A stretch of DNA of 64,000 nucleotides from a virus (taxonomy: Duplodnaviria > Heunggongvirae > Uroviricota > Caudoviricetes), in the IMG/VR virus record IMGVR_UViG_3300046507_000526, positions 6,193 through 70,192 of that record; one strand, given 5' to 3'. Position 1 is the stretch's first letter. Each line of letters begins with the position of its first letter. A program made the position numbers and the translations under genes. This document shows positions 12,430 through 31,272 of this stretch, in pieces. The notes beneath the pieces were generated by a model. It was not told the origin of the DNA, did not search any database, and was given only the letters and a program-made list of their open reading frames with translations.

Positions 12430-13026
12430 TTAACTCAGCATAAACTCAAGCAGAGGATCGGTTTTAGGACGTGCTACTCCTACGCCATTACCCATGCCCC
12501 ACGGTTCTTCAATAGCAGACGCCATTTTAGTTAGAAGTTCCGGAGAAACGCGTTGGAGTTCTTCCAGATCTTCCTGCGTGAATTGAGCGGCAGAAGCAAT
12601 CTTGGTAATCTGTTCGGGCATATGCGCGACAGCATCAATATGATCGAGCTGTGATTGATGATCTGAAGCCTGCTTTTCGATATTCAGCTTAAGACCTTCG
12701 ATTTGAGCTTCAAGAGCTTCTACATACTCAGCTGCTTTTTGAAGAAGTTCAACCGTGGGGTTAGCTTCGATTTGAACCTTAAAACTATTCAGTTCAGCAA
12801 GGTTAAGATTTGCAGCCTTAACCATTTTTACAGCGTCTTCGTGATCCACGCCTTTCATAGCGAGAACGGAAGCTGCTTCTTTTTCCATTACATGCTGAGC
12901 AACTTGAAGATACGCATCTTCTTCAGTGAAACCCGCTTGTTTAAGATGTTCTACGGCAACTGCCTCAGGCGTCGAAAGACGAACGGTTTCAGCATGTTGT
13001 CTAAGAATTGATGATAGATTACTCAT
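12430..13026 (-). CDS. Scaffold-like head protein with K-x-A motifs
   Basis: Coiled-coil; MEKEAAS, LQKAAE, IEKQAS, ITKIAS, LTKMAS; two G-x-D/T-x-E-D-A helical repeats. Confidence 0.6.
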   Translation of the reverse strand: MSNLSSILRQHAETVRLSTPEAVAVEHLKQAGFTEEDAYLQVAQHVMEKEAASVLAMKGVDHEDAVKMVKAANLNLAELNSFKVQIEANPTVELLQKAAEYVEALEAQIEGLKLNIEKQASDHQSQLDHIDAVAHMPEQITKIASAAQFTQEDLEELQRVSPELLTKMASAIEEPWGMGNGVGVARPKTDPLLEFMLS

Positions 13027-13486
13027 TGTCTTTTCTCTTTTTTTCCATTACGCCTTTGGCGTGATTGTGTCTAACGTGATCCAGGATACTAGCGCCAGGA
13101 GTTGCGCCTATTACGCCACCCGCCAGAGTTCCAGCAGGTCTTAGGATAGCGTGCGTTTTTAAGCCCTTTTTAAGTGAGTCAGTAACATCGTAGGATCCTT
13201 CCCCGATTTTGCCAACACCCTTGATGACATTTTTATTAAGTGCACGTCTTGAAAGTACCTGGGCCAATTTCTTGCCACCAGCCATACCTCCGACTACACC
13301 TACTGCAGCGCCTATCGTACTCACTACATTCCCACCGGCTACTTTAGCTGCATTCTTAAAAGAAGAAATTCCAGCATCTCGGTACTCTTGCGTGTATGTA
13401 TGCTTCTCTTCTTTGCTCAGAGATTTATGGTACCCAATACTCGGGAAAAGCGCAGCGGCTTTTTCAAGATACTTGTTTGTCGACAT
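13019..13486 (-). CDS. Tagged internal head protein (MSTNKYLEKAAA), glycine-zipper segments
   Basis: N-terminal tag; IGAAVGVVGGMAGG and GTLAGGVIGA. Confidence 0.65.
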   Translation of the reverse strand: MSTNKYLEKAAALFPSIGYHKSLSKEEKHTYTQEYRDAGISSFKNAAKVAGGNVVSTIGAAVGVVGGMAGGKKLAQVLSRRALNKNVIKGVGKIGEGSYDVTDSLKKGLKTHAILRPAGTLAGGVIGATPGASILDHVRHNHAKGVMEKKRKDNE

Positions 13487-13913
13487 GTTTACTTATCATT
13501 TTGTTAATCTTAACGCCAGCATAATCCGCAGCAAGACTTGTAGCACCGGTTAGAGCTAGAAGTTTTGCATTGTGCATTCTTCCGCCAGTACCGATAAGTT
13601 TGGGGGTTAGCTTGTTAACAGCGAAGCCTGTACCCGCACCAAGTGTACCGATAACTCCAGTATCTATAGCGTCATGCTTCCAATTAGGATTTCGTTCCTG
13701 AAACGTTGAAGCCACTTTGTGTAAAGCTCTATTGAACAATGTCTTTGCTCCTTCAGATAGTTTAGCACCTGGAGAAACAACATGTTCAGGCTTTGCAACT
13801 TGGCCGAGATGTGTGCCCTTGTCGATCTCCATACCGGCTACTTTAATTCTACCGTGTTCATCGAGATCAATATCAAGGTTTGCAATTTTTTCGAGATATT
13901 TATTCATAGCCAA
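13464..13913 (-). CDS. Tagged internal head protein (MAMNKYLEKIAN)
   Basis: N-terminal tag; GVIGTLGAGTGFAV and LLALTGATSLAA. Confidence 0.65.
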   Translation of the reverse strand: MAMNKYLEKIANLDIDLDEHGRIKVAGMEIDKGTHLGQVAKPEHVVSPGAKLSEGAKTLFNRALHKVASTFQERNPNWKHDAIDTGVIGTLGAGTGFAVNKLTPKLIGTGGRMHNAKLLALTGATSLAADYAGVKINKMISKHVDKQVS

Positions 13914-13978
13914 TATGAAAAAAACCCCTCCATACCGAGGATACAGAGGGGCTTAGTACTTAGTTGTAATGCAGCTAA

Positions 13979-14805
13979 TTAGTCTTTCTTTTCGCCGTGA
14001 TGTTTCATAGCGGAATAAGCTTTGCCGCCGTAGAAACCACCTGCAACTTCGCCACCGATAGCAGCGGCCACAGCAGCGCCTGAGCTAAATTTGCGACCTA
14101 GTGCATAACCTAGTGCTGTCCCAGCCGAACCTCCAAGACCACCGCCTAGGATTGTACCGCCAACTTTGTCGCCTTTCTTGGAGCCCATGTACCCGGCTAC
14201 CAAACCAGCAACAGCAGCTTTTTCGATTTCAGCAGCTTTTTCGATTTCAGCAGCTTTCTTTTCAACCATTTCAACGGCTGAATCAAAATCAAGGCCATTT
14301 TCGACTAGCATGTCAACTGCGGCTTTCTTTTCACGGTCTTTGTCTTTTTTAGACATTGCGGCAGCAGCGACACCAGCACCCACTGCAGCAGCACCAGCAC
14401 CGATAGCTGCCTTAGCACCCATCCCCATGCCTTTCTTTGCAACAGCTACAGCCCGTGAAGGAAGTGCTTTAGGACCAAATGCTACTTTTTCCAACTCAGA
14501 TGCTTTCTTTTCAACCATTTGCACAGCTGAATCAAAGTCCACGCCTGATTCGATCAGGAGACCAACTGCGGCTTGCTTCTCTTGATCATTATTCTTTACA
14601 GCGGCGGTCACACCAGCACCAATCGCAGTTGCACCAAGTGCAGTAGCAGCGACGCGTGCTTTGTTAAGCTTCCGACCTTCGCCGAGAGCGTTTTTAACGC
14701 CCCCGCCCGTACCCGGAATACGTGTAACCTTCTGAGCTAACGACGTGCCTGGAACTTTACCTACTAGTTGCAGGACACCCGCTTCTTTCGTTAGCCCAGC
14801 TTTTT
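13979..14805 (-). CDS. -1 frame extension of the scaffold protein (ORF-track ORF 13979..14611 plus 65 open codons upstream)
   Basis: Frame is open from the A_AAA_AAG site through GTG 14611; begins KAGLTKEAG; no canonical start upstream of 14611. Confidence 0.7.
14212..14257. repeat. 18-bp tandem repeat (about 2.5 copies) encoding EIEKAA
   Basis: CAGCAGCTTTTTCGATTT twice plus a partial copy. Confidence 0.9.
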
Positions 14806-15660
14806 TACCAAGTTTACTGCAGTTTCGAAGTCGAAACCAGCTTCCATGAAGTGGTTAAGAGCAGCTTGCTTGATTTGAGCATCTTCTTCACGTTGAATTT
14901 CTTCCGCAGCAGCCTTTACCAGGTTAACTGCATCTTCGAAATCATGACCTTGCTCGACCAGTGCTGAAACAGCAGCAGCCTTTTCTTGAGCATCGCCAGC
15001 AACGGTAAATGCACCAGTAGCGACTTGGTTAGGAGTCTGTGCAGCAACTTGTGCGCCTTCTTCCTTAGCAACGCCAGGCGTAGGATTTTGATCAACAGGA
15101 GCTGCGCCACGAGCCATTGCGTCAGCAACGATTGCGTCGAAAATCTGGTTAATAGAACCACCATTACCACGACCATCCGTACCCGGTTGGTTTTGGATAA
15201 TGCGATCTTGTTCTGCTACTTGAGCAGCCAGGTCTACCTGGGTCTTAGTCGGCGTTGCGCTAGCAATACCGTTAGTAGTATTCATGTCACCAACTGAAGC
15301 CAGCTTCTCAAGAAGAGCTTCGGCCAGTGCCTTACCTGCGTCAGCAGCTTGTTTGTTCATAGTATCCTCTGTTGTTACTTGATCAAGTTTAATGGATGCA
15401 ACCTTTTGCATTACTTCTTTAGCTAACTCTGCACCCTTAGCCGCAGCTTCTTTGGTACGTTCGTCAGCATCGTTTTCCTTTTTGGCGTCTTTGACATCTT
15501 TCTCAGTCTTTTCTACATCTTTCTTGACTTCCTTGACGTCCTTATCGGCCTTTTCTTCATCTTTCTTCTCATCTTTCTCTGTCTCTTCGCTGGCGGACTT
15601 ATTAAGACCGGCGCTCTTTTCAAGATCCTGGATGAGATCATCAAGACTTAGATTCATCAT
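14791..15660 (-). CDS. Scaffolding protein
   Basis: Directly after the protease; acidic/basic coiled coil; eight or more K-x-A motifs. Confidence 0.7.
   Translation of the reverse strand: MMNLSLDDLIQDLEKSAGLNKSASEETEKDEKKDEEKADKDVKEVKKDVEKTEKDVKDAKKENDADERTKEAAAKGAELAKEVMQKVASIKLDQVTTEDTMNKQAADAGKALAEALLEKLASVGDMNTTNGIASATPTKTQVDLAAQVAEQDRIIQNQPGTDGRGNGGSINQIFDAIVADAMARGAAPVDQNPTPGVAKEEGAQVAAQTPNQVATGAFTVAGDAQEKAAAVSALVEQGHDFEDAVNLVKAAAEEIQREEDAQIKQAALNHFMEAGFDFETAVNLVKKLG
14800..14806 (-). other. Slippery heptamer A_AAA_AAG (programmed -1 frameshift candidate)
   Basis: GTA AAA AAG CTG GGC TAA, two codons before the scaffold stop. Confidence 0.65.
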
Positions 15661-15712
15661 GACTAATATCCTTTTTTAACGAGGCTACTGAATTGTAGCC
15701 TTATGAAAATCT

Positions 15713-17230
15713 TCAGTCAATCTTTTTGTTCTGAATCAACTTTAACATTGCCGATTTGGCTAATCTGTAAGTCAATTTGTAGTCAGAAGCAGATTTAACT
15801 AAAGGTATTTTAACACCAACTGAAACCCTATTCAATTCTTGATCTTTCATTTTTTTCTCAATTACTTGAGTGATATACCATTTAGCAGCCAGAGCAGCAC
15901 CACCGATGGCAACAATTGTATTTAGGATCTTTAGAAGTTGAGGTGTTTTATCAGCTGATTCAGTGAGATTCTGCTCACGGAATTTTTCATATACTGTAGA
16001 CTCGATGTGTGGGCCGTTACCGCTATAGCCTACGTTTGTGCCTTGTACAAAGCCATACGCTGAAGCCTGTTTATTAAATGCTACACGCTCCTCTACGTAT
16101 TCCGGGAAATACGAAGCATCTTGCATGTGGGGAAGCAGAGCATAAGCGATACCAAGATTAGGTTCTGTAATTTCGCCGAAATCTTTATCGAAATCCATTA
16201 ACCCGTCGATTCCAACTTTGTTGATATAAGCAGCTGTAAGAGGACCTATACCACGAGCATCACTGCCTAGTATTTTCCTACCAATCAGTTCAGCGAGAAA
16301 ACCCAATGAAGGGCTAATGCCAAGATGACCCAAGGTACTAAGAATCTCGTTAAGCTTATAGTTCTTAATAACGTCGATAACGTCACCTTGCGGATCCGAA
16401 ACTCGTGATACAAGATTATCAAAATTAGAATCGATAGATACAACATCACCGTCAACCTCTTTAAGCAATTCCGATAGCTTTTTAAGAGCAGCGGATTTGT
16501 TCATTGTTATCTCTTCGAGGCCAGCCGCCAATGCTTCATCAACAGAGCTAATAGCAGGTTGAGCAGAAGCTACTTTTTGTAGAACTGCGCTTGTAACATC
16601 GGCAGGGCGGAATACGATAGAAATATCGAAGAACTTAAGTGGCGCAAGATTTAGCGCCATAACCTTACGACCGTCTGGATAGACACGGCCAAGTTGTTCG
16701 CTAAGATGCTCGCAATATTGTTCACGGGTCTTAGCTTTGTTGCCACAAATACTGCAAACGTCAAAAGGCGTGCGGCATGCCATAGAAGTTTTGGGCCAAT
16801 CTCCGCTACCAATACGTTCTGCAATATCAGGAGCCTTATCGTTCCAAAGTTCAGCGATAAGTTCAACGCGATGCATACGTTCATTGTAAACAGAGAACAC
16901 AACTCTACCGATAGCGATGGCAGGATCTTTGTTTACGTGATTGCGGAAAATATGAGCAGGAGATGTTTCGAACGTCTTGTGATAATCGATCAGCGTAGAT
17001 TCTGGAAAATAATCAGCGTTGCGATTGGCACCATAGAACTCACCAGCTCCCATGGCCAGGATGTGAAGATACGTTTTACCATCTACGGGTGTAATTTTAG
17101 AGGCGAACTCCTGTACTCTAGAGTCCGTGGCTTGTTTAACAAGACTGCCTGTAAGATCCCTATTGTCAAGTACAGTAACATGAGGTTCGTCTTGATAAAA
17201 AGAAGAGGTGTCGATTAATTTCGTTAGCAT
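15713..17230 (-). CDS. Prohead (maturation) protease
   Basis: GANRNADYF, FRNH (His), TSMACR (Ser), CSICG...CEH Zn motif; head-module position; self K-x-A sites. Confidence 0.75.
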   Translation of the reverse strand: MLTKLIDTSSFYQDEPHVTVLDNRDLTGSLVKQATDSRVQEFASKITPVDGKTYLHILAMGAGEFYGANRNADYFPESTLIDYHKTFETSPAHIFRNHVNKDPAIAIGRVVFSVYNERMHRVELIAELWNDKAPDIAERIGSGDWPKTSMACRTPFDVCSICGNKAKTREQYCEHLSEQLGRVYPDGRKVMALNLAPLKFFDISIVFRPADVTSAVLQKVASAQPAISSVDEALAAGLEEITMNKSAALKKLSELLKEVDGDVVSIDSNFDNLVSRVSDPQGDVIDVIKNYKLNEILSTLGHLGISPSLGFLAELIGRKILGSDARGIGPLTAAYINKVGIDGLMDFDKDFGEITEPNLGIAYALLPHMQDASYFPEYVEERVAFNKQASAYGFVQGTNVGYSGNGPHIESTVYEKFREQNLTESADKTPQLLKILNTIVAIGGAALAAKWYITQVIEKKMKDQELNRVSVGVKIPLVKSASDYKLTYRLAKSAMLKLIQNKKID

Positions 17231-17235
17231 AGTTA

Positions 17236-17242
17236 TATTTTA
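17236..17242 (-). promoter_or_regulatory. TAAAATA late-type promoter, 5 nt before the protease ATG
   Basis: TAAAATA-TAACT-ATG. Confidence 0.6.
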
Positions 17243-17257
17243 CAGGCGAATCTAGTT

Positions 17258-17578
17258 TTAGTTGGACTCTGGATTGTCTTGATGGAGACGAAGGTTAACC
17301 GTTACCTTAGGTTTCTTCTTAAGAGACTCTGAAATAACTTTCAATTGGTTAAGAGATTGAGCTTCCAGTTCCGCCATATGTCGGCCTCGCTGTTTACTCT
17401 CTGTACTATTTTTAAAATTAGCAACGCCCAGTCCTAGACCAGATGCAGACATTGCTAATCCAATTTTCGAAGTGGTAGAACTACGTTTCCACCCTCTAGC
17501 GAAATCCTTACCAACCGCCTTAATGCCTTCTTTAACAGCCGACATTGAAGCAATCTTTTCAAGGTATTTATTTTCCAT
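17258..17578 (-). CDS. Tagged internal head protein (MENKYLEKIAS)
   Basis: Tag; IGLAMSASGLGLGVA segment; basic. Confidence 0.65.
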   Translation of the reverse strand: MENKYLEKIASMSAVKEGIKAVGKDFARGWKRSSTTSKIGLAMSASGLGLGVANFKNSTESKQRGRHMAELEAQSLNQLKVISESLKKKPKVTVNLRLHQDNPESN

Positions 17579-17580
17579 AA

Positions 17581-18363
17581 TTACTTCTTAAGTTGTTTGC
17601 TTGAATAATACGCACCAGCTCCAGCAAGAGCGGTTCCCAGGATAGATTTACCCAGGCCTTTTGCGAATCTCCCAGGCTTGGCTTTAATAAAGCTTTTAAT
17701 TTCGCCAAGGGAGTTTTTTGCATAAGCATCAGAACCCTTCATATACTTGTTAGATACTGAGCCTTTATTCGTAAATACCGACTTTTCAAGGGTATCGTAT
17801 ATTTTCTTCTTTTGCAATTTTTTGGCAAAAGGTGGAGTGAAAGGGTCTCCCTTCATATCCTTGAAAATCTTTTTAACTTCTGGATTACGTACTTTTTTAA
17901 ACTCATCAGATTTCCACGTAGGTGCATTGACATGAACTACTCCTTTAGAACTTTTAGTTCCGGGAATCATATCTTTGAACCTACTCATGGCATCGTGTAT
18001 TTTGAAAGTGCCTTCGTGAATTCTTTGGGCCTGATTTGCGTACGTATGAGCTTGATGTTTAGACTTTGTCATAAACACATGCTCTTTTGACTTCAACGCA
18101 TCTTCACCATGAACTTCTTCTGCGACGTCAATAATACCTTTAGAAGCTCGTGGTTTAAGCCCTTCTTTGAGAATCTTCTTTTTATGTTCTACTGCAGTTC
18201 CGTGATAAAGAGTTTCACGCCCAGTAAGATGGCCACGATCATATTGATCCTTGGCCATGCCGACGCCTGCTACGACTGCAGCACCACCAGCTATCGTCTT
18301 ATTGGTTTTGTTCTCATCTTTACCCCGGGAAGACTCTGCGACTTTCTCAAGGTATTTGTTCAT
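17581..18363 (-). CDS. Tagged ADP-ribosyltransferase-fold protein (Tpt1/PARP-like HY clade)
   Basis: MNKYLEKVA; LYHGT...ILKEGLKP, VFMT...AHTYA; hydrophobic segments at both ends. Confidence 0.6.
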   Translation of the reverse strand: MNKYLEKVAESSRGKDENKTNKTIAGGAAVVAGVGMAKDQYDRGHLTGRETLYHGTAVEHKKKILKEGLKPRASKGIIDVAEEVHGEDALKSKEHVFMTKSKHQAHTYANQAQRIHEGTFKIHDAMSRFKDMIPGTKSSKGVVHVNAPTWKSDEFKKVRNPEVKKIFKDMKGDPFTPPFAKKLQKKKIYDTLEKSVFTNKGSVSNKYMKGSDAYAKNSLGEIKSFIKAKPGRFAKGLGKSILGTALAGAGAYYSSKQLKK

Positions 18364-18366
18364 TTT

Positions 18367-18915
18367 TTAAACCAGTGACTTAGGATTCATCGCACCGTTT
18401 TCACGATAACGACCTTGAAGATCCGTTAGGCTTTTGATAGTCATAAGATCAATACCATCGCCAAGAACAGCGTTAGTAAGGACAGATTGTAGCAGGTTCG
18501 GGTCGACAGCGACCATAGGTGCAAATCGATAAATAGTATCTGCGTACTTCAGGACTTTCTTGTTATCATGTTCACGAAGAACGTGGGAATTAGCAATAGC
18601 TTGGTGCAATGCTTTTAGGAAACGCTGATAACGGAATTGATCTACTACCGTGCGGTATCCACCGATAAGAGCATTGACTGCCATATTTGACACGAATCCT
18701 GCAGACGACTTACCAGCTTCTGTAGCCATACCTTTCAGATAGTCACCAGTAATATCTTGCTGATGAGGTCCAGCTGCTTCTTTTTGTAGCTGTTCGACTT
18801 CTTGTGCTTCTTTTTCAATCATCACATGAGCGATAAACCCGGCAACGAATTGGTCGGCAAGTTCTTCATTCCCGGCAAATTTCTCAAGACCGAGTTCTTT
18901 AATTTTTTCTAGCAT
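18367..18915 (-). CDS. Head protein with K-x-A motifs
   Basis: LEKFAG, IEKEAQ, LQKEAA. Confidence 0.55.
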   Translation of the reverse strand: MLEKIKELGLEKFAGNEELADQFVAGFIAHVMIEKEAQEVEQLQKEAAGPHQQDITGDYLKGMATEAGKSSAGFVSNMAVNALIGGYRTVVDQFRYQRFLKALHQAIANSHVLREHDNKKVLKYADTIYRFAPMVAVDPNLLQSVLTNAVLGDGIDLMTIKSLTDLQGRYRENGAMNPKSLV

Positions 18916-18942
18916 TTTAAATTATTCCTTTGAGTTTCTTAA

Positions 18943-20046
18943 TTAATCACGTTGAAGAGCTGTCCACGCGTCATTGCTTCTTCCCGTAGTTGAATCCGTA
19001 CCTGGGTCATACAGGGCAGCGTCAATAGCAGGGCCAGTAGCAAGTCCGATAGCACCCTTAAGTACTGAACCGGAAGTTTTACCGACAGCCTTCACAATAG
19101 CCTTGGGTTTACCGACTCCCCCGCTCATAAGGTTATTGACGTTTGATTTTACGCTATTAGAAGCTGCTCTGCCTACTGCTGCAACACCTTTAAAAGGCAT
19201 AGCCGCAGCAGCTCCTACTGCCCTGCCTGCGACATAGCCAGGATTACCAAGATTCTTGGCAAATTGTCCTGACTTCTTACTGATATTTTTCATCGCATCT
19301 GAGAAGTTATTCTGATTAATTCCCTGTGCGGTAGCAGCGGCTTGTTTCTGAAGTTCTGAACGCTGACGCTGTTCACGAACTAGTTCCCGGGCTTGCTTAT
19401 ACAAATCTGCAAATCCTTTAACTTCGCTTAGCTGAGCTTCTTTAAAAAGACCTACACTTGCGATATCACGATACTTTTGTACGGAGCCTGAAACTAGAAT
19501 AGAGAGTTCTTTGAACTCCTGTTCCGTTGTAACACAGGCCAGTTTATCCATCCATTTCTCATCACTGTTGATTGCCTTAGCTGTTTTCACAAGCCTCTCA
19601 GCGACGTTCATGCTTTCAATCTGGATACGTTCAAGTGCCTCTTTATTAGCAGCTGCAGATTTTATGAAGTAAGCCAGCTTTTCGCCGTGCTCAAGTTCAC
19701 GATTTTCATAAGCAGAAGCTTGTTTTTCCATTGCGTCTTTTTGTTCAACGCTAATAGCTGCAGCAGATTTTTCTTGGAAGTTATCAGGCACTGTAGCTGC
19801 GGTCATGACTTCCGCGTATTTAGCAAGCGGAAATTCGATAGTGCGATCTTCTTTACTCAGTTGTAGAACTTTAAGGTATGCGATATTGTTCGTTGATTCC
19901 ACAGCACGCTTAACCTGTTCACTATTCAATTCGTAGGCGGCAGCTTGCTTTGCAAGACCCGCGCTAAGGGGAACGTTGTTGTTCAGGAAGTCTTCGACTG
20001 CCTTTACTGAGATATCTCTAATTTCTTCTGGGCTGATATTAGCCAT
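18943..20046 (-). CDS. Head/internal protein with K-x-A motifs and C-terminal Gly/Ala-rich segments
   Basis: LAKQAA, QEKSAA, MEKQAS, FIKSAA, LFKEAQ, LQKQAA; promoter 20072..20078. Confidence 0.6.
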   Translation of the reverse strand: MANISPEEIRDISVKAVEDFLNNNVPLSAGLAKQAAAYELNSEQVKRAVESTNNIAYLKVLQLSKEDRTIEFPLAKYAEVMTAATVPDNFQEKSAAAISVEQKDAMEKQASAYENRELEHGEKLAYFIKSAAANKEALERIQIESMNVAERLVKTAKAINSDEKWMDKLACVTTEQEFKELSILVSGSVQKYRDIASVGLFKEAQLSEVKGFADLYKQARELVREQRQRSELQKQAAATAQGINQNNFSDAMKNISKKSGQFAKNLGNPGYVAGRAVGAAAAMPFKGVAAVGRAASNSVKSNVNNLMSGGVGKPKAIVKAVGKTSGSVLKGAIGLATGPAIDAALYDPGTDSTTGRSNDAWTALQRD

Positions 20047-20194
20047 TGTGTCCTCGTTTTGACGATGTTCCTATTTTAGCATTGAGCGCTATAAAGGGCT
20101 TGCTTTTGGGGTGACGAATCGATTTTTGACCAGTCCTCATACGAAGTTGGCCTTGTTTCTTTTTAGCCGCGATTTTCTCTAGATATTTATTCAT
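20039..20194 (-). CDS. 51-aa tagged highly basic peptide (not in ORF track)
   Basis: MNKYLEKIAAKKKQGQLRMRTGQKSIRHPKSKPFIALNAKIGTSSKRGHNG; stop overlaps the ATG of the next gene. Confidence 0.8.
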   Translation of the reverse strand: MNKYLEKIAAKKKQGQLRMRTGQKSIRHPKSKPFIALNAKIGTSSKRGHNG

Positions 20195-20271
20195 GTGTGT
20201 TATTTAACTTCCAGATACAAACAGGGCCTACCAGTATAAAACTTAGTAAGCCCTTGTTTTTAGCTATATTC

Positions 20272-22965: not shown

Positions 22966-23031
22966 TTATAACAGTCCTTTGAAATATGCAGATATTTTAG
23001 CAGGATAAGCCGCGTTTAGTCTATTGTGATT

Positions 23032-23811
23032 TTAACATCCGGGTGGATGCTGATTATCACCAGAAGCAACGGTAATCGTCCCCGTGCCAGTACTAGACCC
23101 ATTTGCAACAGCCACACCCCCGCCTGAGCTATTTGCCTGATTGTAGGCAGCTCCGTAGTAAATACTTGCTACGTACGCCGAAGTAGAACTTCCGTTTCCT
23201 CGATCCGTAGCCGCTAATCCAATATAAGCCTGGAAAGTTGCTTCCATTCTGCTGTTATACGTGAATTGACCTATTGTGAATTTACTACCCGATTGTTTCA
23301 CTGCTTTATATTTGGATTCTAAAACTACGAGCCCTGCAAGCAGTTGATTTGATACAGTAGATGAGCCATTAAATTTAGCAGAAAGGCTCTCTCCTGGATT
23401 TACACAAAGTATAGACACAAGATCAGGTCTTGCAGTCTCGATCAGGCACTTACCTGTTTTCTGAGAAGCGCCTTTCACCTGGTTCCAACCCATAGTCTGT
23501 AGAAGACCCCAAGCTCGAAGGCCCTGATCTACGTTGACAGATTGCTGATTAATACCTCTTCCAACTATATTCTGTACAGCGCTAGAATTGTAATAATCCC
23601 TGGCACCTGACGAGTTTATAACGCTCAAAGCAGGGCCTTGAGCATTTACATTGAAATGGCTCTCGTATTGAATCTGAGCCATAACCAACTTTACAATATC
23701 GTTCTCTTTGCCAAGAGTATTGGGAAAATACTGATCAAGTAACTGTCTGATCGTTGTAGCACAAATCTGTTTAATAGAGGTATCTACGACGGTTCCTGTA
23801 ACAGCACCCAT
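23032..23811 (-). CDS. Virion-associated lytic transglycosylase (SLT-like)
   Basis: AQIQYESHFN catalytic Glu motif and AWGLLQTMG; ATG overlaps the beta'-C stop (TAATG). Confidence 0.65.
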   Translation of the reverse strand: MGAVTGTVVDTSIKQICATTIRQLLDQYFPNTLGKENDIVKLVMAQIQYESHFNVNAQGPALSVINSSGARDYYNSSAVQNIVGRGINQQSVNVDQGLRAWGLLQTMGWNQVKGASQKTGKCLIETARPDLVSILCVNPGESLSAKFNGSSTVSNQLLAGLVVLESKYKAVKQSGSKFTIGQFTYNSRMEATFQAYIGLAATDRGNGSSTSAYVASIYYGAAYNQANSSGGGVAVANGSSTGTGTITVASGDNQHPPGC

Positions 23812-25637
23812 TAGTACTTACCTCCCTCTCCTTCACCGAATTCATTGCCGATAATATACGAAGTAATGGGATCAGTACTGTGAATATGTGATTCAGATCC
23901 TACAGCTGCACTTTCACGTAAGGTGTTTTTAAGACCTGAGAATGAAAGCTTAGATACCCAGTTATCATCGAGTAATTTAGCTGTCTTAAGACCAGGCACA
24001 ATCGGAACTACTCGAAGTCCAGTCGGAGCCACAGGCACCTTGGTTACCCCCTTTTCACGCAATTCCTGAATATGATTACCGTCAAGAAGTGTTCCCGGCG
24101 TAAGCTCATAAACGCCTTTTGCTAAAAGTTTACCTTCAGCCTGGTCAAGAGGAACTTCTCCATGAGTGTCAGCAAAATACTTGCGCACTGTATTCACATC
24201 AATCTTTTGGCCAGGTAGGAAACCAGTTTCAGCAGGATCAATTACTTCAACGTGCTTGACCAGGTTCTTGGCAATCATTTCGAAATGGCGAGGATCAAGG
24301 CCTCCGCCGTATATTCCACGAAGCTCATGGGCCATGTACAGCCGACCTGCACCCAGACCTTTCAGTCCAACCAGTTTTCGAGGATTTACAACACCGGTAG
24401 AAAGGGCATCGCCTTTGAGAATCTTTTCGCCAACAGCAACTTTAAGATTCTGATTGTTAGGCACGAAGTGTGCCTGCTCGTTTACGAACACATTATGGTC
24501 ACCAAGAGGGGTTTGCTTAATTGCGGAAACCACGCCATTGATATTCGAGATCGTTGCTTCGTCTTTGAAGTTTTCCGAAGGATTACGCAGAAGATTCGAG
24601 GCTTGATCGTAAGAGTTACCCTTACGAGCACCAACAGAAGCTTTGTGCTTCGTAGAAAGCATGGACTGCGTCAAAACTTCAGATACAGATTGAGCAGCGA
24701 TAACACCAACGTTTTCACCAATCTCAGCAGGTTTACCATTTCCCATTAATCCATAGCATTTCTTGCAAACACCATCATGTGCTTCGCATGTCAATACACT
24801 ACGCACCTTCATGTCTTTATGGCCTGAATTTACAAGTTCTTTGTAATAGTGCTCATCGATTAAGGTGTTCGTACCAACTTCGTAGCGGCCAATAGCTCCC
24901 TTTTTGTCGGCGATTGGCAAAGTTATACCGTTTGTCGTCCCGCAATCGTCAATAGTAATTACTTCATGGAATACGGTAGGGGAAAGTTCCTTAAACAGAG
25001 CGCCTGGAAGAGCTGTAGACAACTGAGATAGAACGGTAGATCCACGACCCATATACGACATTGCGATAACCTCTGCAGGAGTCATACCTTGAGCAAAAGA
25101 ATGCTTAATAACGAAAGGAACAAGTTCCCCTTTAAGGTTGATCGACATAAGAGGGGTCGATGTACCAGTAGCAAGCTGCGTGGGATTACCACGCGCACCA
25201 GTACGAGCCATCTTTGCAGCAGTCGAGCCTTTGCTCAAAAGATAGTCAAGGTTTTGTTTTTCGATCTTACCGTTGTATTCGCCAGTTAGATTTCCCAGCG
25301 CATCATTCTCTTCTTTCTTTGAAAATTTCTTTGCAAAGATTTGATCAACCTTTGTTTGAAATTCATCGATGATAGCCTGACGTTCGTCAGATTCATTTAT
25401 GTAATCGCTGAGCGGAGTAGTAGCACCAATCTCGGTTGCCTTGTTGAAGAACTTCTTACCGAGATCATTAATCGTTTCATGGCTATTAGGCCCGCCGTGC
25501 TTAAGAAGTACATTGACCAAGTCGCTGATAGCGCCTTTATCAAGAGGCCTGTACAGATCGAAGTTGTCCTTCGCTTCTTGAGTGGGAAGTTCTGATTTGA
25601 GCCTAATGGCTCCAGGCGTGGTATATTTTTCAGTCAT
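23811..25637 (-). CDS. rpoC: RNA polymerase beta' subunit, C-terminal fragment
   Basis: ARTGARGN, VITIDDCGT, RSVLTC, CKKCYG, GENVGVIAAQSVSEVLTQSMLSTKH (trigger loop), PRHFEMI. Confidence 0.9.
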   Translation of the reverse strand: MTEKYTTPGAIRLKSELPTQEAKDNFDLYRPLDKGAISDLVNVLLKHGGPNSHETINDLGKKFFNKATEIGATTPLSDYINESDERQAIIDEFQTKVDQIFAKKFSKKEENDALGNLTGEYNGKIEKQNLDYLLSKGSTAAKMARTGARGNPTQLATGTSTPLMSINLKGELVPFVIKHSFAQGMTPAEVIAMSYMGRGSTVLSQLSTALPGALFKELSPTVFHEVITIDDCGTTNGITLPIADKKGAIGRYEVGTNTLIDEHYYKELVNSGHKDMKVRSVLTCEAHDGVCKKCYGLMGNGKPAEIGENVGVIAAQSVSEVLTQSMLSTKHKASVGARKGNSYDQASNLLRNPSENFKDEATISNINGVVSAIKQTPLGDHNVFVNEQAHFVPNNQNLKVAVGEKILKGDALSTGVVNPRKLVGLKGLGAGRLYMAHELRGIYGGGLDPRHFEMIAKNLVKHVEVIDPAETGFLPGQKIDVNTVRKYFADTHGEVPLDQAEGKLLAKGVYELTPGTLLDGNHIQELREKGVTKVPVAPTGLRVVPIVPGLKTAKLLDDNWVSKLSFSGLKNTLRESAAVGSESHIHSTDPITSYIIGNEFGEGEGGKY

Positions 25638-25662
25638 AGTTGTAGAAATTAAAATGCTTTCC

Positions 25663-25669
25663 TATTTTA
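25663..25669 (-). promoter_or_regulatory. TAAAATA late-type promoter (beta'-C operon)
   Basis: CTAAAATAGGAA 26 nt upstream of ATG 25637. Confidence 0.65.
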
Positions 25670-25724
25670 GCGCTAAGGCATGTCCGGCCCTACTCATTCC
25701 CTTTGCACATATTACCCTAAAACT

Positions 25725-25733
25725 TGGTATAAG
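25725..25733 (+). promoter_or_regulatory. TGGTATAAG promoter
   Basis: Exact motif upstream of 25779. Confidence 0.75.
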
Positions 25734-25778
25734 TAAATTACGGATAAACAATCCATCTTAACTTTAGTCGGAGGAAAT

Positions 25779-26045
25779 ATGAACGGTGCATGGCGTATTG
25801 AAATGACAGAAGTAGAGCATGGCTGGGGTCCCAGGCCTGACGGCTATCTTTATTCCCTGAACAAGGAAGCTGTTGAAGCAGCAGCCAAAGAAAGAACTTC
25901 CAAGAAATGGAAGGGAGTTACCATCGAATCTGGCCGGGCAGAATTTGTCCCGATAACTCCGGAACTTCACGTTGTCCTGATGGAAACTGTCTGCATCATT
26001 ACCGCTGTTGGGAAAAAGGCAGGCGATCTGACCATCGTTTCGTAA
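25779..26045 (+). CDS. Small protein, paralog of 26071
   Basis: WRIEMTEVEHGWGPRPDGYLYS. Confidence 0.6.
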   Translation: MNGAWRIEMTEVEHGWGPRPDGYLYSLNKEAVEAAAKERTSKKWKGVTIESGRAEFVPITPELHVVLMETVCIITAVGKKAGDLTIVS

Positions 26046-26070
26046 CCGCAGTACAACATAGAGGTGAGCT

Positions 26071-26415
26071 ATGTTTGCAGCATATCGAGTGCAGATCGAG
26101 GAATACGTTCCGGGTCAAGGTTGGGTCGACGATGGATACCTGTATAGTCCGGATCAGGTCAAACTTAAAGTCGAGGTAGAACGCCGTTTGACCTCCTGTT
26201 ACTTCAACCAGGAACGAGTACGTGCCAACGAAGCAAAGATTGTCGTTGTGCATGAAACGTTCTTGCGGGACCTGAAGACGACGCCTGTACTTTCAACGAT
26301 CAAAGGATTGCATCCCGCTGATCAAGGTACCCTTGAAGAGCATAAGAAAACCTTCAAGGCTCCGAAGGTCTCGAAGTATCAAGGTAGAAGTAATGGCCTT
26401 TCAATGCTTCGTTAA
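26071..26415 (+). CDS. Small protein, paralog of 25779
   Basis: YRVQIEEYVPGQGWVDDGYLYS; GAGG RBS. Confidence 0.6.
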   Translation: MFAAYRVQIEEYVPGQGWVDDGYLYSPDQVKLKVEVERRLTSCYFNQERVRANEAKIVVVHETFLRDLKTTPVLSTIKGLHPADQGTLEEHKKTFKAPKVSKYQGRSNGLSMLR

Positions 26416-26755
26416 CCTCGACAAGAGAGTAGTGTAGATCCCAGACTGGACTGAGCGGAGTGAGATAGATTCTCTCCGCCAGTCCGTATTTTTTAATCAA
26501 ATCAGAAATATGTTGGTATAAAGACTTAAAGATCCCCTTACCTTTATTTTTACTCTTTGCAAATGTCTTTGCAGTTCCTCCAAATTCACCAACAGAGTTT
26601 AGGATAAGGCAATTATCGTGAATCGTTATATCTATAGGCATTCCTGAAATCCAGGCGGTTCCAGGCAATATTTTTTCATCTTTGAATTCGATGGTCGTGT
26701 TTGCTGATTCAGCAAGGGCCTTTAGGAATTCGTTTTCTTTAACATGTGTATACAT
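26354..26755 (-). CDS. Possible GNAT-like protein
   Basis: KNKGKGIFKSLYQHI resembles the acetyl-CoA-binding motif A; weak. Confidence 0.35.
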   Translation of the reverse strand: MYTHVKENEFLKALAESANTTIEFKDEKILPGTAWISGMPIDITIHDNCLILNSVGEFGGTAKTFAKSKNKGKGIFKSLYQHISDLIKKYGLAERIYLTPLSPVWDLHYSLVEVNEALKGHYFYLDTSRPSEP

Positions 26756-27910
26756 ATGGCAATTAAAAATAAGGCTGTTGAACTTCCAAAGGCGGCGCTT
26801 CCAAAAGCTACTACTAACGTAAATGCTTCATACTGGACCCAACTTCCTAAAACCAGCGATGAATACGGAAAAATTCTCGATAAAGTAATTGATGAACTAA
26901 ATAAGTCGCATAAGAACTCAGGATATAGCATTTATGTTCGTAAATCTAACAGATTCAAGGAACTCTCGTCTGCTAAGTATACAGAGAAAATGTTCCTGTT
27001 TTTGGAAGCTAACTATTGGTCATACACTACAAAGGCCGGTGCTGAAGCTATCCAGTACATCATAGATCATTTCCAGCTTAACGATCAAAACGCAAGGCTT
27101 AGTCCGGACCGCAAGCACGTAGAATTTATGTACGACGGCGTACTTGTTGAAATTGGAGATCCGAGTGAACGACTTAGGAAAGCCAATAGTAACCCTGAGT
27201 CTCAGATCACCAATGTTATATACGGATACGGAGGAGAGCTGTATAAGGTGATCAAGATCCTGCTTAACAAGTTTGGATTTGATTTTACAGACGAAGCCAA
27301 GTTTCAGTTCAAGCTTATGGAAGGAGAGTCCGTATATAAAACGTACGAAGTTGCTACGGGTCTAGATAGTTTATATAAACTCCTGGGCACGAGTTCCAGA
27401 AACGCACCGTATATGTTTAATTTTACAAAGCGGTCTGAATTCGCAGACTGGGCAATGGGTTCACGCTACATCGGTAAATCAACATTTGATATCGATGAGC
27501 ACAATAACTATGTAGGGCCAGTGGATTATTACGGGTCATCTCTGTACAGGGAACTGGTTCATATTATTCGTGAGAAATACGTTTCTGACGCAGACAAGGC
27601 TACGCCTGAAGTTTTGCCAGAAACGATCCGTAAGTATCAGAATAAATTCTGGGAAGCCAGAAGCGTTTACGAATATAAAAAGATGCTGAAAGATATGGCA
27701 GTGTATCAGGAACGTAAGATCATTCGGAATAAATTTACTGATACTATGATCATGGAAGTAACTGGTACAAATAACAAAGAAGAAATAGATTCCTTCAAGT
27801 TGAGATTTGAAAATCATATCTCCAACAGCGAAGATTTCTCGTTCTTCTTGCTGAGTTCTTCCGAAGATACTATCCGTGAGAAAATAGCAGCATTCAGAGC
27901 TTCGAACTAA
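26756..27910 (+). CDS. Possible divergent nucleotidyltransferase-family protein
   Basis: C-terminal half (SEFADWAMGSRY; RNKFTDTMIMEVTG) recalls phage Pol-beta-like NTases, but no GD-x-D motif is seen. Confidence 0.35.
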   Translation: MAIKNKAVELPKAALPKATTNVNASYWTQLPKTSDEYGKILDKVIDELNKSHKNSGYSIYVRKSNRFKELSSAKYTEKMFLFLEANYWSYTTKAGAEAIQYIIDHFQLNDQNARLSPDRKHVEFMYDGVLVEIGDPSERLRKANSNPESQITNVIYGYGGELYKVIKILLNKFGFDFTDEAKFQFKLMEGESVYKTYEVATGLDSLYKLLGTSSRNAPYMFNFTKRSEFADWAMGSRYIGKSTFDIDEHNNYVGPVDYYGSSLYRELVHIIREKYVSDADKATPEVLPETIRKYQNKFWEARSVYEYKKMLKDMAVYQERKIIRNKFTDTMIMEVTGTNNKEEIDSFKLRFENHISNSEDFSFFLLSSSEDTIREKIAAFRASN

Positions 27911-27914
27911 GTTT

Positions 27915-27921
27915 TAAAATA
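27915..27921 (+). promoter_or_regulatory. TAAAATA late-type promoter on the plus strand
   Basis: TTTTAAAATAG overlapping the first arm of the terminator hairpin 27924..27957; only plus-strand intergenic copy noticed. Confidence 0.55.
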
Positions 27922-27982
27922 GTCTAGACGTGATATAATGCGTCTAGGCTTTTTTTAGCTTTTCAAAGGCGTCCGACAATAA

Positions 27983-28450
27983 ATGCTACAACCTAACGAT
28001 GAATTCCTTTTTACCCGTCAACGTCACGAAGCTGATGTAATGGGCCTGCATTACGATCTGAGACTCGTTCATGGAGACAAAGCGTATTCTTTTGCAACTC
28101 TCAAGGATATGCCTAAACCTGGTGAAATCATTGCCGTCTATGAGCAGCCTGTACATGATCGTGCATACGCACTTAGCAAGAAGGTTGTCATTCCTAAAGG
28201 TCAGTACGGCGCAGGGACTACGTATCTGGATTGGGTTCGTAAAGCAGTTGTAGCCCCGCATAGCACAGAAACTAGTCTGGTTATATTCACGAAGGATGGT
28301 GAGAAGTTTCTTCTGAAGAAATCTCCGACCAAAGAAAATGAAAAGTCCTGGATTTTTAGAAACATCACAGGCATGGGGAAGAGTCAGAATCCTTATTTGA
28401 AGAAAGTAGAGGAAATGCAGAAAAAAGCGATGCAGGCATTTTATGAATAA
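27983..28450 (+). CDS. LigD-type 3'-phosphoesterase (PE) domain protein
   Basis: QRHEA..LHYDLRL..SFA..K..P..AV..H..Y..IPKGQYGAG, the signature of LigD PE domains. Confidence 0.85.
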   Translation: MLQPNDEFLFTRQRHEADVMGLHYDLRLVHGDKAYSFATLKDMPKPGEIIAVYEQPVHDRAYALSKKVVIPKGQYGAGTTYLDWVRKAVVAPHSTETSLVIFTKDGEKFLLKKSPTKENEKSWIFRNITGMGKSQNPYLKKVEEMQKKAMQAFYE

Positions 28451-29903
28451 GTACCTTGAAAAAATTGCCAAGAAGCAGCCTAAGGAAGATCTTCAACCGC
28501 ATCAAAACGATGCCTTGGATCATCTCGACAAAGAGAAAGGCGTTGTCCTTCATCACAGCCTTGGCAGTGGCAAGACAAAGACGTTCCTTAAGGCTGTACA
28601 ACGCTATCAGGAAGAGAACCCGAAGAAACGGGCTCTTGTTATTGCCCCAGCGAGCCTCGTTACTAACGTCGATAAAGAACTTCAGAAACATCACATCACG
28701 ATTGATAAAAATCGACTGGATGTAATGTCTTATGAAAAGGCTGTAAATGAAGCCCATCACCTTCGAAAGAATCACTACGCAATCGCAGTTGCGGATGAAG
28801 CCCACCGTCTCCGCAATACAAATACCAAACGTGTAAAAGAGCTTCGTGACATTATCAGCGGGGCTGACCATAGACTTCTCGCTACTGCTACTGGTAATTA
28901 CAATAAGCTTTCTGATATTTCGGCACTGGTTAACATAGCGGCTAACGATAATGTTCTTCCCGAAGATTCCAAGAAAATGGAAGACAAGTACACGAAGGAC
29001 GAAACGATTAAGCCTAGCTTCAAAAATAGATTGCTCGGTGCTAAACCTGAAGTAGTAAAAACCCTTGACCGTAAAAAAGAACTTCGAGACATTCTTCAAC
29101 AATATGTGAGCTTTTACGATAGCAAGGATGATCCGAAGGCTAGAGACCATTTCCCCGAAAAGCATGAGAAATTTGTAGATGTTGAGATGTCTCCAGAGCA
29201 GCTCCGTTACTACAAATATGCTGAAGGTAAAATTCCATTCTTGCTTAGAATGAAGATCCGTCACAATATGCCGCTCGATAAAAAAGAGAAGTCGAATCTC
29301 AATGCTTTCTCAACCGGTGTTAGACAGGTTTCTAACGGTCACAGGCATCTCGTTGCTGACGGTAAGGCCGAGTACTCACCAAAGATACAGAAGGCCGTGG
29401 CGAGCCTCCAGGATGGCTTAAAACTGGATAAGAACTTCAAGGCTCTAGTGTATTCCAATTACTTGGATGCGGGCCTTAAAGATTACTCCCGCAAACTTAA
29501 CGAGCTTAAGATTCCACACGCTTTATACGATGGATCATTGTCTCGCAAAGAGAAAGACGATCTTGTAAAAGCATACAACTCTGGGAAGACAAAGGTTCTT
29601 CTTATTTCTTCAGCGGGTTCAGAAGGTCTGGATAGTAAAGGCACTAAGAGAGTGCAGGTTCTTGAGCCTCACTTTAATAAAGCCAAGGTTGACCAGGTAG
29701 TTGGACGTGCCGTACGTTTTGGAAGTCATGACCATCTGCCGAAAGAAGAGCGTAAAGTAGAAGTAGAGCATTTCCGTAGCGTGCATCCAAAACCGTTGTG
29801 GGGCAAAGCTCCGTATAGTATCGACAGGTATCTTTCGGAGAATTCGGATACGAAGCAGGATCTGTTTGAAGAAGTCAAAGGACTGATGAAGAAAGATGAT
29901 TAA
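28443..29903 (+). CDS. Tagged SF2 helicase/ATPase (SNF2-related, NPH-I/D6-D11-like)
   Basis: MNKYLEKIA; HSLGSGKT, DEAH, TATG, SSAGSEGLD, QVVGRAVRFGSH. Confidence 0.85.
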   Translation: MNKYLEKIAKKQPKEDLQPHQNDALDHLDKEKGVVLHHSLGSGKTKTFLKAVQRYQEENPKKRALVIAPASLVTNVDKELQKHHITIDKNRLDVMSYEKAVNEAHHLRKNHYAIAVADEAHRLRNTNTKRVKELRDIISGADHRLLATATGNYNKLSDISALVNIAANDNVLPEDSKKMEDKYTKDETIKPSFKNRLLGAKPEVVKTLDRKKELRDILQQYVSFYDSKDDPKARDHFPEKHEKFVDVEMSPEQLRYYKYAEGKIPFLLRMKIRHNMPLDKKEKSNLNAFSTGVRQVSNGHRHLVADGKAEYSPKIQKAVASLQDGLKLDKNFKALVYSNYLDAGLKDYSRKLNELKIPHALYDGSLSRKEKDDLVKAYNSGKTKVLLISSAGSEGLDSKGTKRVQVLEPHFNKAKVDQVVGRAVRFGSHDHLPKEERKVEVEHFRSVHPKPLWGKAPYSIDRYLSENSDTKQDLFEEVKGLMKKDD

Positions 29904-31272
29904 TAAATACCTTGAAAAGATCGCAGTACAGCTTAAAGAACCTGCCAGCCCAGAAGGGTTAGGATTTGACCTGTCCAAAGGTGATGAAAAAGAGCTATAT
30001 AAATGGCTTACAGCTGTTACTCTTTTTTCAAGGCCTATTCAACGCTCGGTAGCTACGATGGCTGCAAAGCATATGGCTGATAAAGGTTTCCATTCTCCAG
30101 AAGCTGTAGAATCTGCAGGATGGGAGACTCTTAGAGATAATCTCGTACAAGGTCATTATGCTCGGTTCGATGAGTCAACTGCTACGACTATGCTCGCCCA
30201 GGCTAAGCATTTGAAAGAGAAGTATGGAACTCTCGGCAACATGATCGCCAGTCGAACCCCTGAAGAAATTCGTGCCGAGATTCAGACATTCAGAGGTATC
30301 GGTCCCCTCGGCAGTCAGTTATTTCTCAATGGCGTAGTCCCTCATCTCGATGTATACAAAAATAAATACCTTCAAAAAGCGGCTTTCATCGAAGACTACG
30401 TTAGACATAAATATGTAGAGAAAGACTGGACTCAGCTCGAACACCCCGTTGCATCAAAGAAATGGGATGGCGCTCACTTTGTCGCTGATATTATGCCGGA
30501 TGGTAAAATCCGTTTCTTTTCCCGTAGACCAAGTGTAAGAGGTGGCTATCCGGAACGTACAGATCAGTTACCTCATATTACTTCAAAGCTAATTCCCGAG
30601 TATGCAGGTAATAGATTTGCCGTTGAACTTGTCCATACTGGAAAGGAAAAAACAGAGAAGGAATCTCACCCTACTGTTTCAGGTATCCTCAATTCAAAAA
30701 CGGAACGTTCAATTGCTACTCAAGAAGAGAAAGGCCCAGTTAGGGCAGTTCTTATTGACGTTAAAAAACCGGAACTGCCGACATATAAAGATAAGATTGA
30801 GTATCTCCAAGGCTTTGAAAAAGACTTTGGAAATAGCAATGTATTGTTCGCACCTCATCTTGAGCATGGCGTTGAGAACATCAATAAGTATCTTGACAAG
30901 ATTAAATCACTAGGTGGAGAAGGCCTGATCGTTGCGGATTATGAAAGTCCTGAAAATGAGTCTGTACGATATAAGGTCAAGAACTTCAACACTTATAATC
31001 TCAAGGTTGTTGGATTCCAGCAGGAAATCGACATACATGGCAATCCGAAAGATAGCATGGGTGCACTATTGTTAGAAGATGCTACTGGAAGAATGGTTGG
31101 AAAGGTTGGAACTGGGTTTGACCGTGCTACCAGAATAGATGCATGGAAGAATCCAGAGAAATGGAGAAACAGATTAATTCAGATAAGAGCGTATCCACCT
31201 AGCGTACCTGGAGGCCAAGTAAGATTTCCTATCTATAATGGCTATGCAGATGGTGAAATAGACACGGTTTAA
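29896..31272 (+). CDS. Tagged fusion: HhH/endonuclease III-like domain plus ATP-dependent DNA ligase
   Basis: MINKYLEKIA; FRGIGP HhH motif; second tag NKYLQKAA at aa 156; KKWDG, EGLIV, YKVK, GKVGTGF, RFP ligase motifs. Confidence 0.85.
   Translation: MINKYLEKIAVQLKEPASPEGLGFDLSKGDEKELYKWLTAVTLFSRPIQRSVATMAAKHMADKGFHSPEAVESAGWETLRDNLVQGHYARFDESTATTMLAQAKHLKEKYGTLGNMIASRTPEEIRAEIQTFRGIGPLGSQLFLNGVVPHLDVYKNKYLQKAAFIEDYVRHKYVEKDWTQLEHPVASKKWDGAHFVADIMPDGKIRFFSRRPSVRGGYPERTDQLPHITSKLIPEYAGNRFAVELVHTGKEKTEKESHPTVSGILNSKTERSIATQEEKGPVRAVLIDVKKPELPTYKDKIEYLQGFEKDFGNSNVLFAPHLEHGVENINKYLDKIKSLGGEGLIVADYESPENESVRYKVKNFNTYNLKVVGFQQEIDIHGNPKDSMGALLLEDATGRMVGKVGTGFDRATRIDAWKNPEKWRNRLIQIRAYPPSVPGGQVRFPIYNGYADGEIDTV

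Follow-up and report, generated by a model that had tools for sequence, protein, structure and literature searches.

An uncultured tailed phage (IMG/VR record IMGVR_UViG_3300046507_000526) possesses a short N-terminal peptide, M(x0-2)-N-K-Y-L-E-K-[I/V/A]-A, that opens seven otherwise unrelated open reading frames (ORFs). This tag is probably an address that loads proteins into the phage head and is then cleaved off, in the manner of the capsid targeting sequence (CTS) of bacteriophage T4; the probability of this reading is put at about two in three (0.66). Cleavage at the tag, taken by itself, is highly likely. The phage genome is a single contig of 134,192 bp with 44.5% GC, and the window analysed is a stretch of 64,000 nucleotides within it (positions 6,193 to 70,192 of the record), to which the coordinates below refer.

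In a six-frame translation of the whole 134,192-bp genome, the string KYLEK occurs seven times, always one to three residues past a start codon and always between 13 and 31 kb of the window. The first base of the Asn codon of the tag is located at 13477, 13904, 17572, 18360 and 20191 on the minus strand and at 28446 and 29902 on the plus strand. The five minus-strand ORFs are situated among head genes; the two plus-strand ORFs, encoding a helicase and a ligase, are found just beyond them. The copies vary synonymously (AAT/AAC, TAT/TAC, CTT/CTA/CTC and GCA/GCC/GCG/GCT). An additional internal copy, NKYLQKAA, begins at 30361 on the plus strand and corresponds to ligase residues 156–163. A preliminary description of this DNA had reported the seven shared starts as well as the eighth, internal copy, and all of them are present. 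One start needs correction: the ORF placed there at TTG 13913 most likely begins at ATG 13907, since the resulting MNKYLEKIAN matches the orthologues.

The peptide is widespread in related phages. A degenerate DNA pattern for NKYLEK[IV]A matched 106 stretches in IMG/VR, with 168 occurrences of the peptide, about 148 of them within three residues of a start codon. The other matches (about 20 of the 168) are not N-terminal, a recurring case being a C-terminal ...GNKYLEKIAKLQT... on small contigs; they are probably unrelated or chance matches and were set aside. The 133 distinct N-terminal copies together employ every synonymous codon at all eight tag positions (Asn codons 88/45, Tyr codons 67/66, six Leu and four Ala codons), and conservation collapses right after the Ala, where Ser (29), Ala (19), Glu (18), Gly (14), Leu (11), Lys (11) and others follow. 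Because synonymous codons vary freely while the amino acids stay fixed, the tag is, judging by these sequences, under selection at the level of the peptide, as the preliminary description had proposed from the differing codons of the window copies. By BLAST, the bodies of the 112 unique tagged proteins form 59 clusters (E < 1e-4). Pfam offered no family for most of the 35 cargo representatives; the matches obtained were to a helicase, a PARP-like protein, glycine-zipper domains and one DnaJ. Orthologue comparisons also reveal variants of the tag (NRYLEKIA, NKYLEKLA, NKYLTKIA, NKYLLKLA and NPFLDKAA), in which Y, L, K and A vary least.

Five complete or near-complete relatives of 168–193 kb carry four to seven tags each, all in one stretch of 7–40 kb, and a reversed-pattern control gave no match in these five genomes. 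The genome-wide search that had been suggested as a check limits the tag to the neighbourhood of the head genes both here and in these relatives. Many tag-bearing loci contain the head module of the window, with a major capsid protein (MCP) identity of 54–99%. A megablast search with 20 kb against the phage collection found no match; the closest phages in culture are Salmonella phage Arash and Vibrio phages D69, D181 and D148, in whose head module the MCP is about 50–56% and a 653-aa head-module protein 27–31% identical.

The tagged genes of the window are diverse. The 155-aa protein (13019–13486, minus strand; tag NKYLEKAA, 13454–13477) has Gly/Ala-rich, glycine-zipper-like segments; tagged orthologues are present in loci L019, L040 and L042 of the relatives, and L056 has an unrelated tagged gene in the same slot. 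The adjacent protein of about 147 aa (13464–13907, minus strand, with the probable ATG start; tag 13881–13904) has a second site, LHKVA-S, at residue ~64 in the TTG-start numbering; its orthologues are 53–64% identical overall and have an identical tag. The 106-aa protein (17258–17578, minus strand; tag 17549–17572) begins MENKYLEKIA-S and was the partner in the complex model described below. The 51-aa peptide (20039–20194, minus strand; tag 20168–20191) is highly basic, and tagged orthologues are kept in eight of the fetched loci (L015, L038, L040, L042, L076, L082, L094 and L098). None of these four small proteins (155, 149 as counted from the TTG, 106 and 51 aa) has a family in Pfam or PHROGs. 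The 260-aa protein (17581–18363, minus strand; tag 18337–18360) has an LYHGT motif and two flanking Gly/Ala-rich hydrophobic segments. It matches Pfam Tpt1/KptA (E 0.0076) and RNA 2′-phosphotransferases by PDB profile (E 0.05), Atlas leads point to DarT, scabin and PARP, and the homologue in L067 matches PARP at 3e-4; these leads are weak but concordant, and the protein probably has an ADP-ribosyltransferase (ART)-type fold. In this it parallels T4 Alt, a packaged and processed ART. On the plus strand, a SNF2-type helicase of 486 aa (28443–29903; tag 28446–28469; Pfam SNF2-rel_dom 3e-19, Helicase_C 4e-15) is followed by a tagged N-terminal domain joined to an ATP-dependent DNA ligase core (29896–31272; tag 29902–29925; PHROG 114 ligase, 6e-25).

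Natural swaps and fusions suggest that the tag, or the motif in which it ends, behaves like a cleavable linker. The DNA of L042 and L056 is 99.4% identical as far as position 1524 of the stretch compared, where the 24-nt tag ends; past it follow about 450 bp of unrelated cargo, after which homology resumes at 95%. As this junction is the last base of the tag, cargo genes are exchanged with the tag as the left border. The internal copy in the ligase ORF (30361–30384) falls exactly on the domain joint, where this phage has NKYLQKAA-F and four relatives have IQKQA-S; ten other loci encode the ligase core on its own, in an ORF that opens with (M)Y-x-R-x-K-Y, three to five residues after the joint. 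In a complete 181-kb IMG/VR genome, a phosphoesterase and the SNF2 helicase form one 643-aa ORF (L052:5891-7819, minus strand) joined through ...SIEKRA-W...NVYLEKIA-K, the tag being internal in a natural polyprotein. A 436-aa ORF of L067 combines a tagged segment, a homologue of the 106-aa protein (after NPFLDKAA-S) and a homologue of the 260-aa protein (after QEKRA-E).

The last five residues of the tag, L-E-K-I-A, fit a motif, Φ-x-K-x-A (Φ being L, I, M, V or F), that is concentrated in the head proteins. The 15 head-block genes contain it 46 times, against an expectation of 10.1 ± 3.0 by within-protein shuffling (4.6-fold; maximum 20 in 500 shuffles); in the other 188 genes it is found 55 times against 51 ± 7.6 expected, which is no enrichment. 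The abundance of K-x-A in head proteins, noted earlier by eye in the preliminary description, is thus statistically borne out. Scaffold-like proteins have 4–10 copies each. The MCP (10962–11855, minus strand; PHROG 2522 major head protein, 3e-13) has exactly one site, [LMH]-[TE]-K-E-A-[GS], at residues 26–31 (nt ~11763–11780), which is kept in 27 aligned orthologues (50–98% identity), including those of Arash and D69; the most distant match, in L018 (32%), has the related GLQKTA. Among 908 internal sites in orthologous head proteins, P5 is L in 51% and M in 28%, P4 is mostly E, and P1′ is S in 28%, A in 22% and G in 12%, with no preference for N-K-Y at P8–P6. By these preferences, L-E-K-I-A is the modal site, and N-K-Y is extra information restricted to the tags.

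The enzyme expected to cut this motif is the prohead protease, a 505-aa protein (15713–17230, minus strand; PHROG head maturation protease, 6e-7) consisting of a domain at residues ~35–222, a helical scaffold-like C-terminal part and a 24-residue tail. It has Φ-x-K-x-A sites of its own at residues 30–34, 217–221 and 477–481. In an alignment of 16 protease sequences, H56, H98 and S149 are invariant, as are the Lys and Ala of all three sites (K32/A34, K219/A221 and K479/A481), while the flanks of the sites have diverged; H98 and S149 are spaced 51 residues. The AlphaFold model made from this alignment has a core (~35–222) with a predicted local distance difference test score (pLDDT) of ~80–88, and the three conserved sites are at or adjoining low-confidence linkers. 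The top Foldseek matches of the model are herpesvirus assemblins and T4 gp21, with weak E-values (0.01–0.05). A second look with VIA gave Z 11.4 for T4 gp21 (5jbl; root-mean-square deviation 3.0, 132 of 164 residues aligned) and Z 8–10.5 for herpesvirus proteases, compared with about Z 6 for unrelated MCE-domain entries. Since the top Foldseek matches agree in family with one another and VIA supports them, the modelled protease is assigned the T4 gp21/herpesvirus assemblin fold. An invariant cluster, C159-x2-C162...C173-x-H175, is inserted just after S149 (residues 159–175) and looks like a zinc knuckle.

The docking of the tag by structure prediction, another of the suggested checks, was made onto the protease and places the tag in the active-site groove. 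Three runs were made, in which protease residues 35–225 were modelled together with residues 1–40 of the tagged 106-aa protein. They gave a median score of 0.63, compared with 0.01 for the best of three controls; of 80 solved complexes, 58 come up to the mark for this score, as do 2 of 110 mismatched pairs. At least 40% of contacts are shared between the runs, and the pLDDT of the partner is at least 39. Only tag residues 4–12 contact the protease. In the model, Ile9, Ala10 and Ser11 are placed at Ser149 and His98, so that the Ala/Ser pair would lie at the catalytic Ser and His; Lys8 is at the invariant Asp73 and Asp157 and also at Asn194, and Leu6 packs against residues 153–157 and 166–169. 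This geometry fits P1 = Ala, P3 = Lys and P5 = Leu. The passing score may partly reflect likeness to solved herpesvirus protease–peptide complexes. A candidate substrate peptide derived from the tag is Ac-MENKYLEKIASMSA, with the predicted cut at Ala10/Ser11.

Tag-like stretches are also found on other genes. The LigD-type 3′-phosphoesterase (27983–28450, plus strand; Pfam LigD_N 5e-8) has no N-terminal tag, and its C-terminal stretch is tag-like (NPYLKKV...MQKKA-M). Orthologues in L026 (4179–4580, plus strand), L046 and L068 end in ...NKYLEKLSHYA, that is ...MPNKYLEKLSHYA; with such endings in these three orthologues, the tag may work at the C-terminus too. A 107-aa protein (9041–9364, minus strand) carries a conserved degenerate tag, MAG-x-FN[KR]YLSKT[LI] (FNKYLSKTL at 9349, minus strand), with another residue in place of the Ala; this could be a non-cleavable version retaining the N-K-Y-L-x-K part. 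The N-arm of the MCP (11766–11855, minus strand) contains FLNQSF[LI]DKID upstream of the K-E-A site and separate from it. This stretch, kept in most aligned MCP orthologues including that of Arash and appearing as FLNNAFIDKLD in D69, resembles the Y-L-E-K-I of the tag in its pattern of aromatic, aliphatic, acidic, Lys and aliphatic residues. The preliminary description had listed the stretches at 9364, in the phosphoesterase and in the MCP as variants of one tag; the strings are real but differ in kind from the seven tags, and those at 9364 and in the MCP do not count as cleavable tags like them. Two small head-region ORFs of D69 (L002), at 17516–17695 and 26399–26707, begin MDKVA-K and MFKSA-S; with the initiator Met at the place of P5, they may represent a minimal five-residue cleavable N-terminus.

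Taken together, M(x0-3)-N-K-Y-L-E-K-[IV]-A would be a short N-terminal propeptide serving as a head-loading tag, and its L-E-K-I-A the commonest form of the Φ-x-K-x-A motif that the phage's own protease recognises, cut most likely after the Ala. Tag-bearing proteins would be recruited to the core of the assembling prohead, either by a scaffold receptor or by the protease itself, whose scaffold-like C-terminal half would anchor it and whose substrate groove would bind the tag. The activated protease would then take off the tag. By cutting the same motif, it would also trim the N-arm of the MCP, free itself from its scaffold part and C-terminal tail, and chop the scaffold-like proteins to small pieces. 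The mature cargo would be retained in the head and probably delivered with the DNA, so that the tagged proteins would be cleaved, encapsidated and finally injected. The predicted cargo consists of glycine-zipper membrane-active proteins, the ART-fold enzyme, the basic peptide, the SNF2 helicase, the ligase and, presumably, the phosphoesterase.

A bolder version of this scheme is possible, if rather speculative as a whole: the protease may double as the cargo receptor. The tag would be an extended high-affinity substrate (P8–P1) held in the inactive, scaffold-anchored protease; loading and release would be one device, and any gene behind the 24-nt tag would become cargo. The injected kit would then comprise a DNA-end repair trio (LigD-type phosphoesterase, SNF2 helicase and ligase), the ART-fold enzyme and the membrane-active proteins. 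A protease acting as cargo catcher is allowed by the docking model and by the tag-specific N-K-Y.

Virion data from the cultured relative Arash bear on the head-loading reading from two sides. In the Arash virion proteome, helicase Gp217 was detected with 38 unique peptides and 1148 spectra, counts similar to those of the piece of the virion RNA polymerase (RNAP) β′ subunit, Gp216, and of the neighbouring structural protein Gp218 (PMC10585845). Gp217 is the orthologue of the tagged helicase (41% identity) without the 14-residue tagged extension. No cleavage sites were reported in that study (PMC10585845).

Several observations weigh against loading by the tag. As Arash packages an untagged helicase, the tag is not the sole route into the head. 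The Arash virion list, moreover, comprises 116 proteins including many metabolic enzymes and is not stringent (PMC10585845). Arash and D69 share the Φ-x-K-x-A motif, but the NKYLEK tag is absent from their 42-kb head regions (their whole genomes were not scanned). In the window itself, the virion RNAP β′ piece (23811–25637) is untagged. The P1′ residue after the tag is highly variable, which is unusual for a highly specific protease, and the invariance of the tag is partly an effect of ascertainment, since the pattern of the tag was also the search pattern for the IMG/VR set. The complex model is an enzyme–substrate case with low partner pLDDT, and one of its three runs scored 0.14. The tag-bearing phages are all uncultured, and cleavage and encapsidation in them are inferred only. 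Of the tag-and-cleave loading put forward in the preliminary description, all the parts that can be examined in silico came out favourably; two elements are more doubtful. The system may not be 'independent' of that of T4, its protease being a structural relative of T4 gp21, and the ligase, named there among the packaged cargo, has its core encoded by a separate untagged gene in many relatives.

The same data can be read in other ways. The tag could be a cleavable pro-sequence only, which keeps toxic or membrane-active proteins inert until they are in the prohead, with entry depending on other features or on co-assembly. The overlap of the tag with the general cleavage motif, the untagged helicase packaged by Arash and the many cargo proteins with glycine-zipper segments, potentially harmful if active early, are all in keeping with such a role. 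It is nevertheless unlikely: with bodies as unrelated as these 59 clusters, the tag is the sole shared feature able to explain common routing; N-K-Y, kept in the tags and missing from the 908 internal sites, indicates information beyond cleavage; and a prohead protease works only inside proheads, so a substrate must enter first. It is quite improbable that the tag has nothing to do with the capsid and acts as a binding or regulatory peptide, directed to a chaperone, a membrane or compartment, or timed degradation, and that its likeness to the motif is coincidental. The helicase, ligase and phosphoesterase are, admittedly, normally replication or repair enzymes, and the tagged proteins are placed in virions by deduction. 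Tags, however, are found only beside head genes, L-E-K-x-A is common to the tags and to the sites of the MCP, protease and scaffold, the docking model places the tag in the protease active site, and the tag-like joints of natural fusions act like cleavable linkers.

Conservation at the nucleic-acid level, as a translation-initiation or downstream-box element, a promoter or a recombination linker, was also considered; the tag is A-rich and always abuts the start codon, and the recombination junction coincides with its end. This explanation was rejected and is effectively excluded, because codons vary synonymously at all eight positions while the amino acids are fixed; the in-frame internal copies at protein domain joints also argue against it. 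Loading by the tag followed by cleavage remains the preferred reading.

The other genes of the head module fit around the tagged ones. A scaffold-like protein of 198 aa (12430–13026, minus strand) has six Φ-x-K-x-A sites, with a density of 34 sites per 1000 aa in its orthologues. Two further scaffold-like proteins of 210 and 289 aa (13979–15660, minus strand) contain repeated short helical modules flanked by Φ-x-K-x-A. These modules are repeats of about 35 residues (..AAV..L.E.G.DF..AV..V..), and the orthologue of the 289-aa protein reaches 405–539 aa in relatives such as L076, L101 and L014. Two head-module proteins of 182 and 367 aa (18367–20046, minus strand) have the conserved N-terminal sites GLEKFA-G (10–14) and GLAKQA-A (31–35) and further internal sites. 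Most head-module proteins, including the 653-aa protein by the RNAP piece, have no match in PHROGs or Pfam; the latter was not called a portal, as it lacks a family match and the annotated portal of Arash is a different gene. A GC-rich hairpin with a T-run (cccctc...gaggggttttttt; ~13915–13960, minus strand) lies in the gap between the gene of the 210-aa scaffold-like protein and the tagged ORF at 13907, immediately upstream of the latter, and looks like an intrinsic terminator within the head operon.

If the head-loading reading is true, the tag would join that of T4 as the second short, portable and well-defined one for capsid targeting, from an unrelated and mostly uncultured clade of ~170–190-kb phages. 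It would come with a new prohead-protease specificity, Φ-x-K-x-A, linking gp21-type enzymes with the Ala-specific herpesvirus assemblins. It would also provide a one-line rule for finding injected or internal proteins, covering at least 59 families, almost all without a function so far; like the internal proteins of T4, these probably serve in anti-defence or take-over. For loading phage heads with proteins, the tag would be a natural plug-and-play handle. The recombination junction exactly at the end of the tag shows how cargo repertoires evolve, and together with the breadth of the cargo and the new protease motif makes the system directly testable. The string NKYLEK was not found in the full-text literature searched, about 8.4 million texts.

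Among known systems, the cargo-loading peptides of encapsulins are short, portable and usually C-terminal; they bind the shell protein directly and are not cleaved. The tag is similar as a short portable peptide addressing unrelated cargo to the inside of an HK97-fold shell. It differs in being N-terminal and in coinciding with a protease motif, and is not a peptide of the encapsulin type. N-terminal signals or propeptides that direct proteins into myovirus heads are known from phages P1 and SPN3US/phiKZ. The packaging signal of P1 DarB has about 30 residues and belongs to a single protein (PMC9024508). The head-protein propeptides of SPN3US/phiKZ mostly have 100–250 residues, and those of SPN3US are removed by a gp21-like protease at A-X-E (PMC5694885, PMC10052503). 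Neither, unlike the present peptide, is a short tag shared by many proteins, the former serving one protein and the latter being long.

The protease invites comparison with herpesvirus pUL26, in which an assemblin-fold protease likewise forms the N-terminus of a longer protein. The predicted site at 217–221, directly behind the protease domain, resembles the R-site and that at 477–481, some 24 residues from the C-terminus, the M-site. Herpesviruses are not known to have a portable N-terminal cargo tag. Herpesvirus proteases cut after Ala, at the R-site and the M-site alike, as in YLQA-T and VQA-S of pseudorabies virus (PrV) (PMC4498786). P1 is Ala and P1′ often Ser in both cases, and PrV YLQA-T resembles YLEKIA-S and YLQKAA-F; the motif described here differs in needing Lys at P3 and a hydrophobic residue at P5, and its protease in the Cys/His cluster insertion.

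The closest parallel is the CTS of T4, reportedly described by Mullaney and Black in 1996. The proteins IPI–III, Alt and gp24 of T4 have an N-terminal CTS of 10–20 residues that is removed by gp21, delivers proteins to the scaffolding core and is effective on foreign ones as well (PMC3012670, PMC5694885, PMC8442874). It is said to associate proteins with the core structure (PMC5694885); that of the internal proteins is MKTYQEFIAE (PMC8442874). Both systems have an N-terminal peptide of about ten residues on unrelated proteins, which ends in the cleavage motif, here a predicted one, of a gp21-fold protease. Both have diverse, exchangeable cargo genes, and the scaffold is chopped in T4, and would be here, at many copies of the motif. 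When MNKYLEKIA and MKTYQEFIAE are aligned from Met, five of nine positions agree (M, Y, E, I and A) and the inferred cuts differ by one residue; a 9-mer is too short to establish homology, and the agreement could be due to chance, convergence or a shared binding mode. The two differ in the sequence of the peptide and in the cut, predicted after the Ala of Φ-x-K-x-A here and made after the Glu of [LI]-x-E in T4. They also differ in lineage, the present one consisting of Arash/D69-related phages of ~170–190 kb with a virion RNAP, and in the predicted cargo, with its helicase, ligase and, probably, phosphoesterase; the tag is found, in addition, at the joints of natural polyproteins. The concept of a capsid targeting sequence is thus an established one, and what is new here is the sequence of the tag and the protease specificity that it points to.

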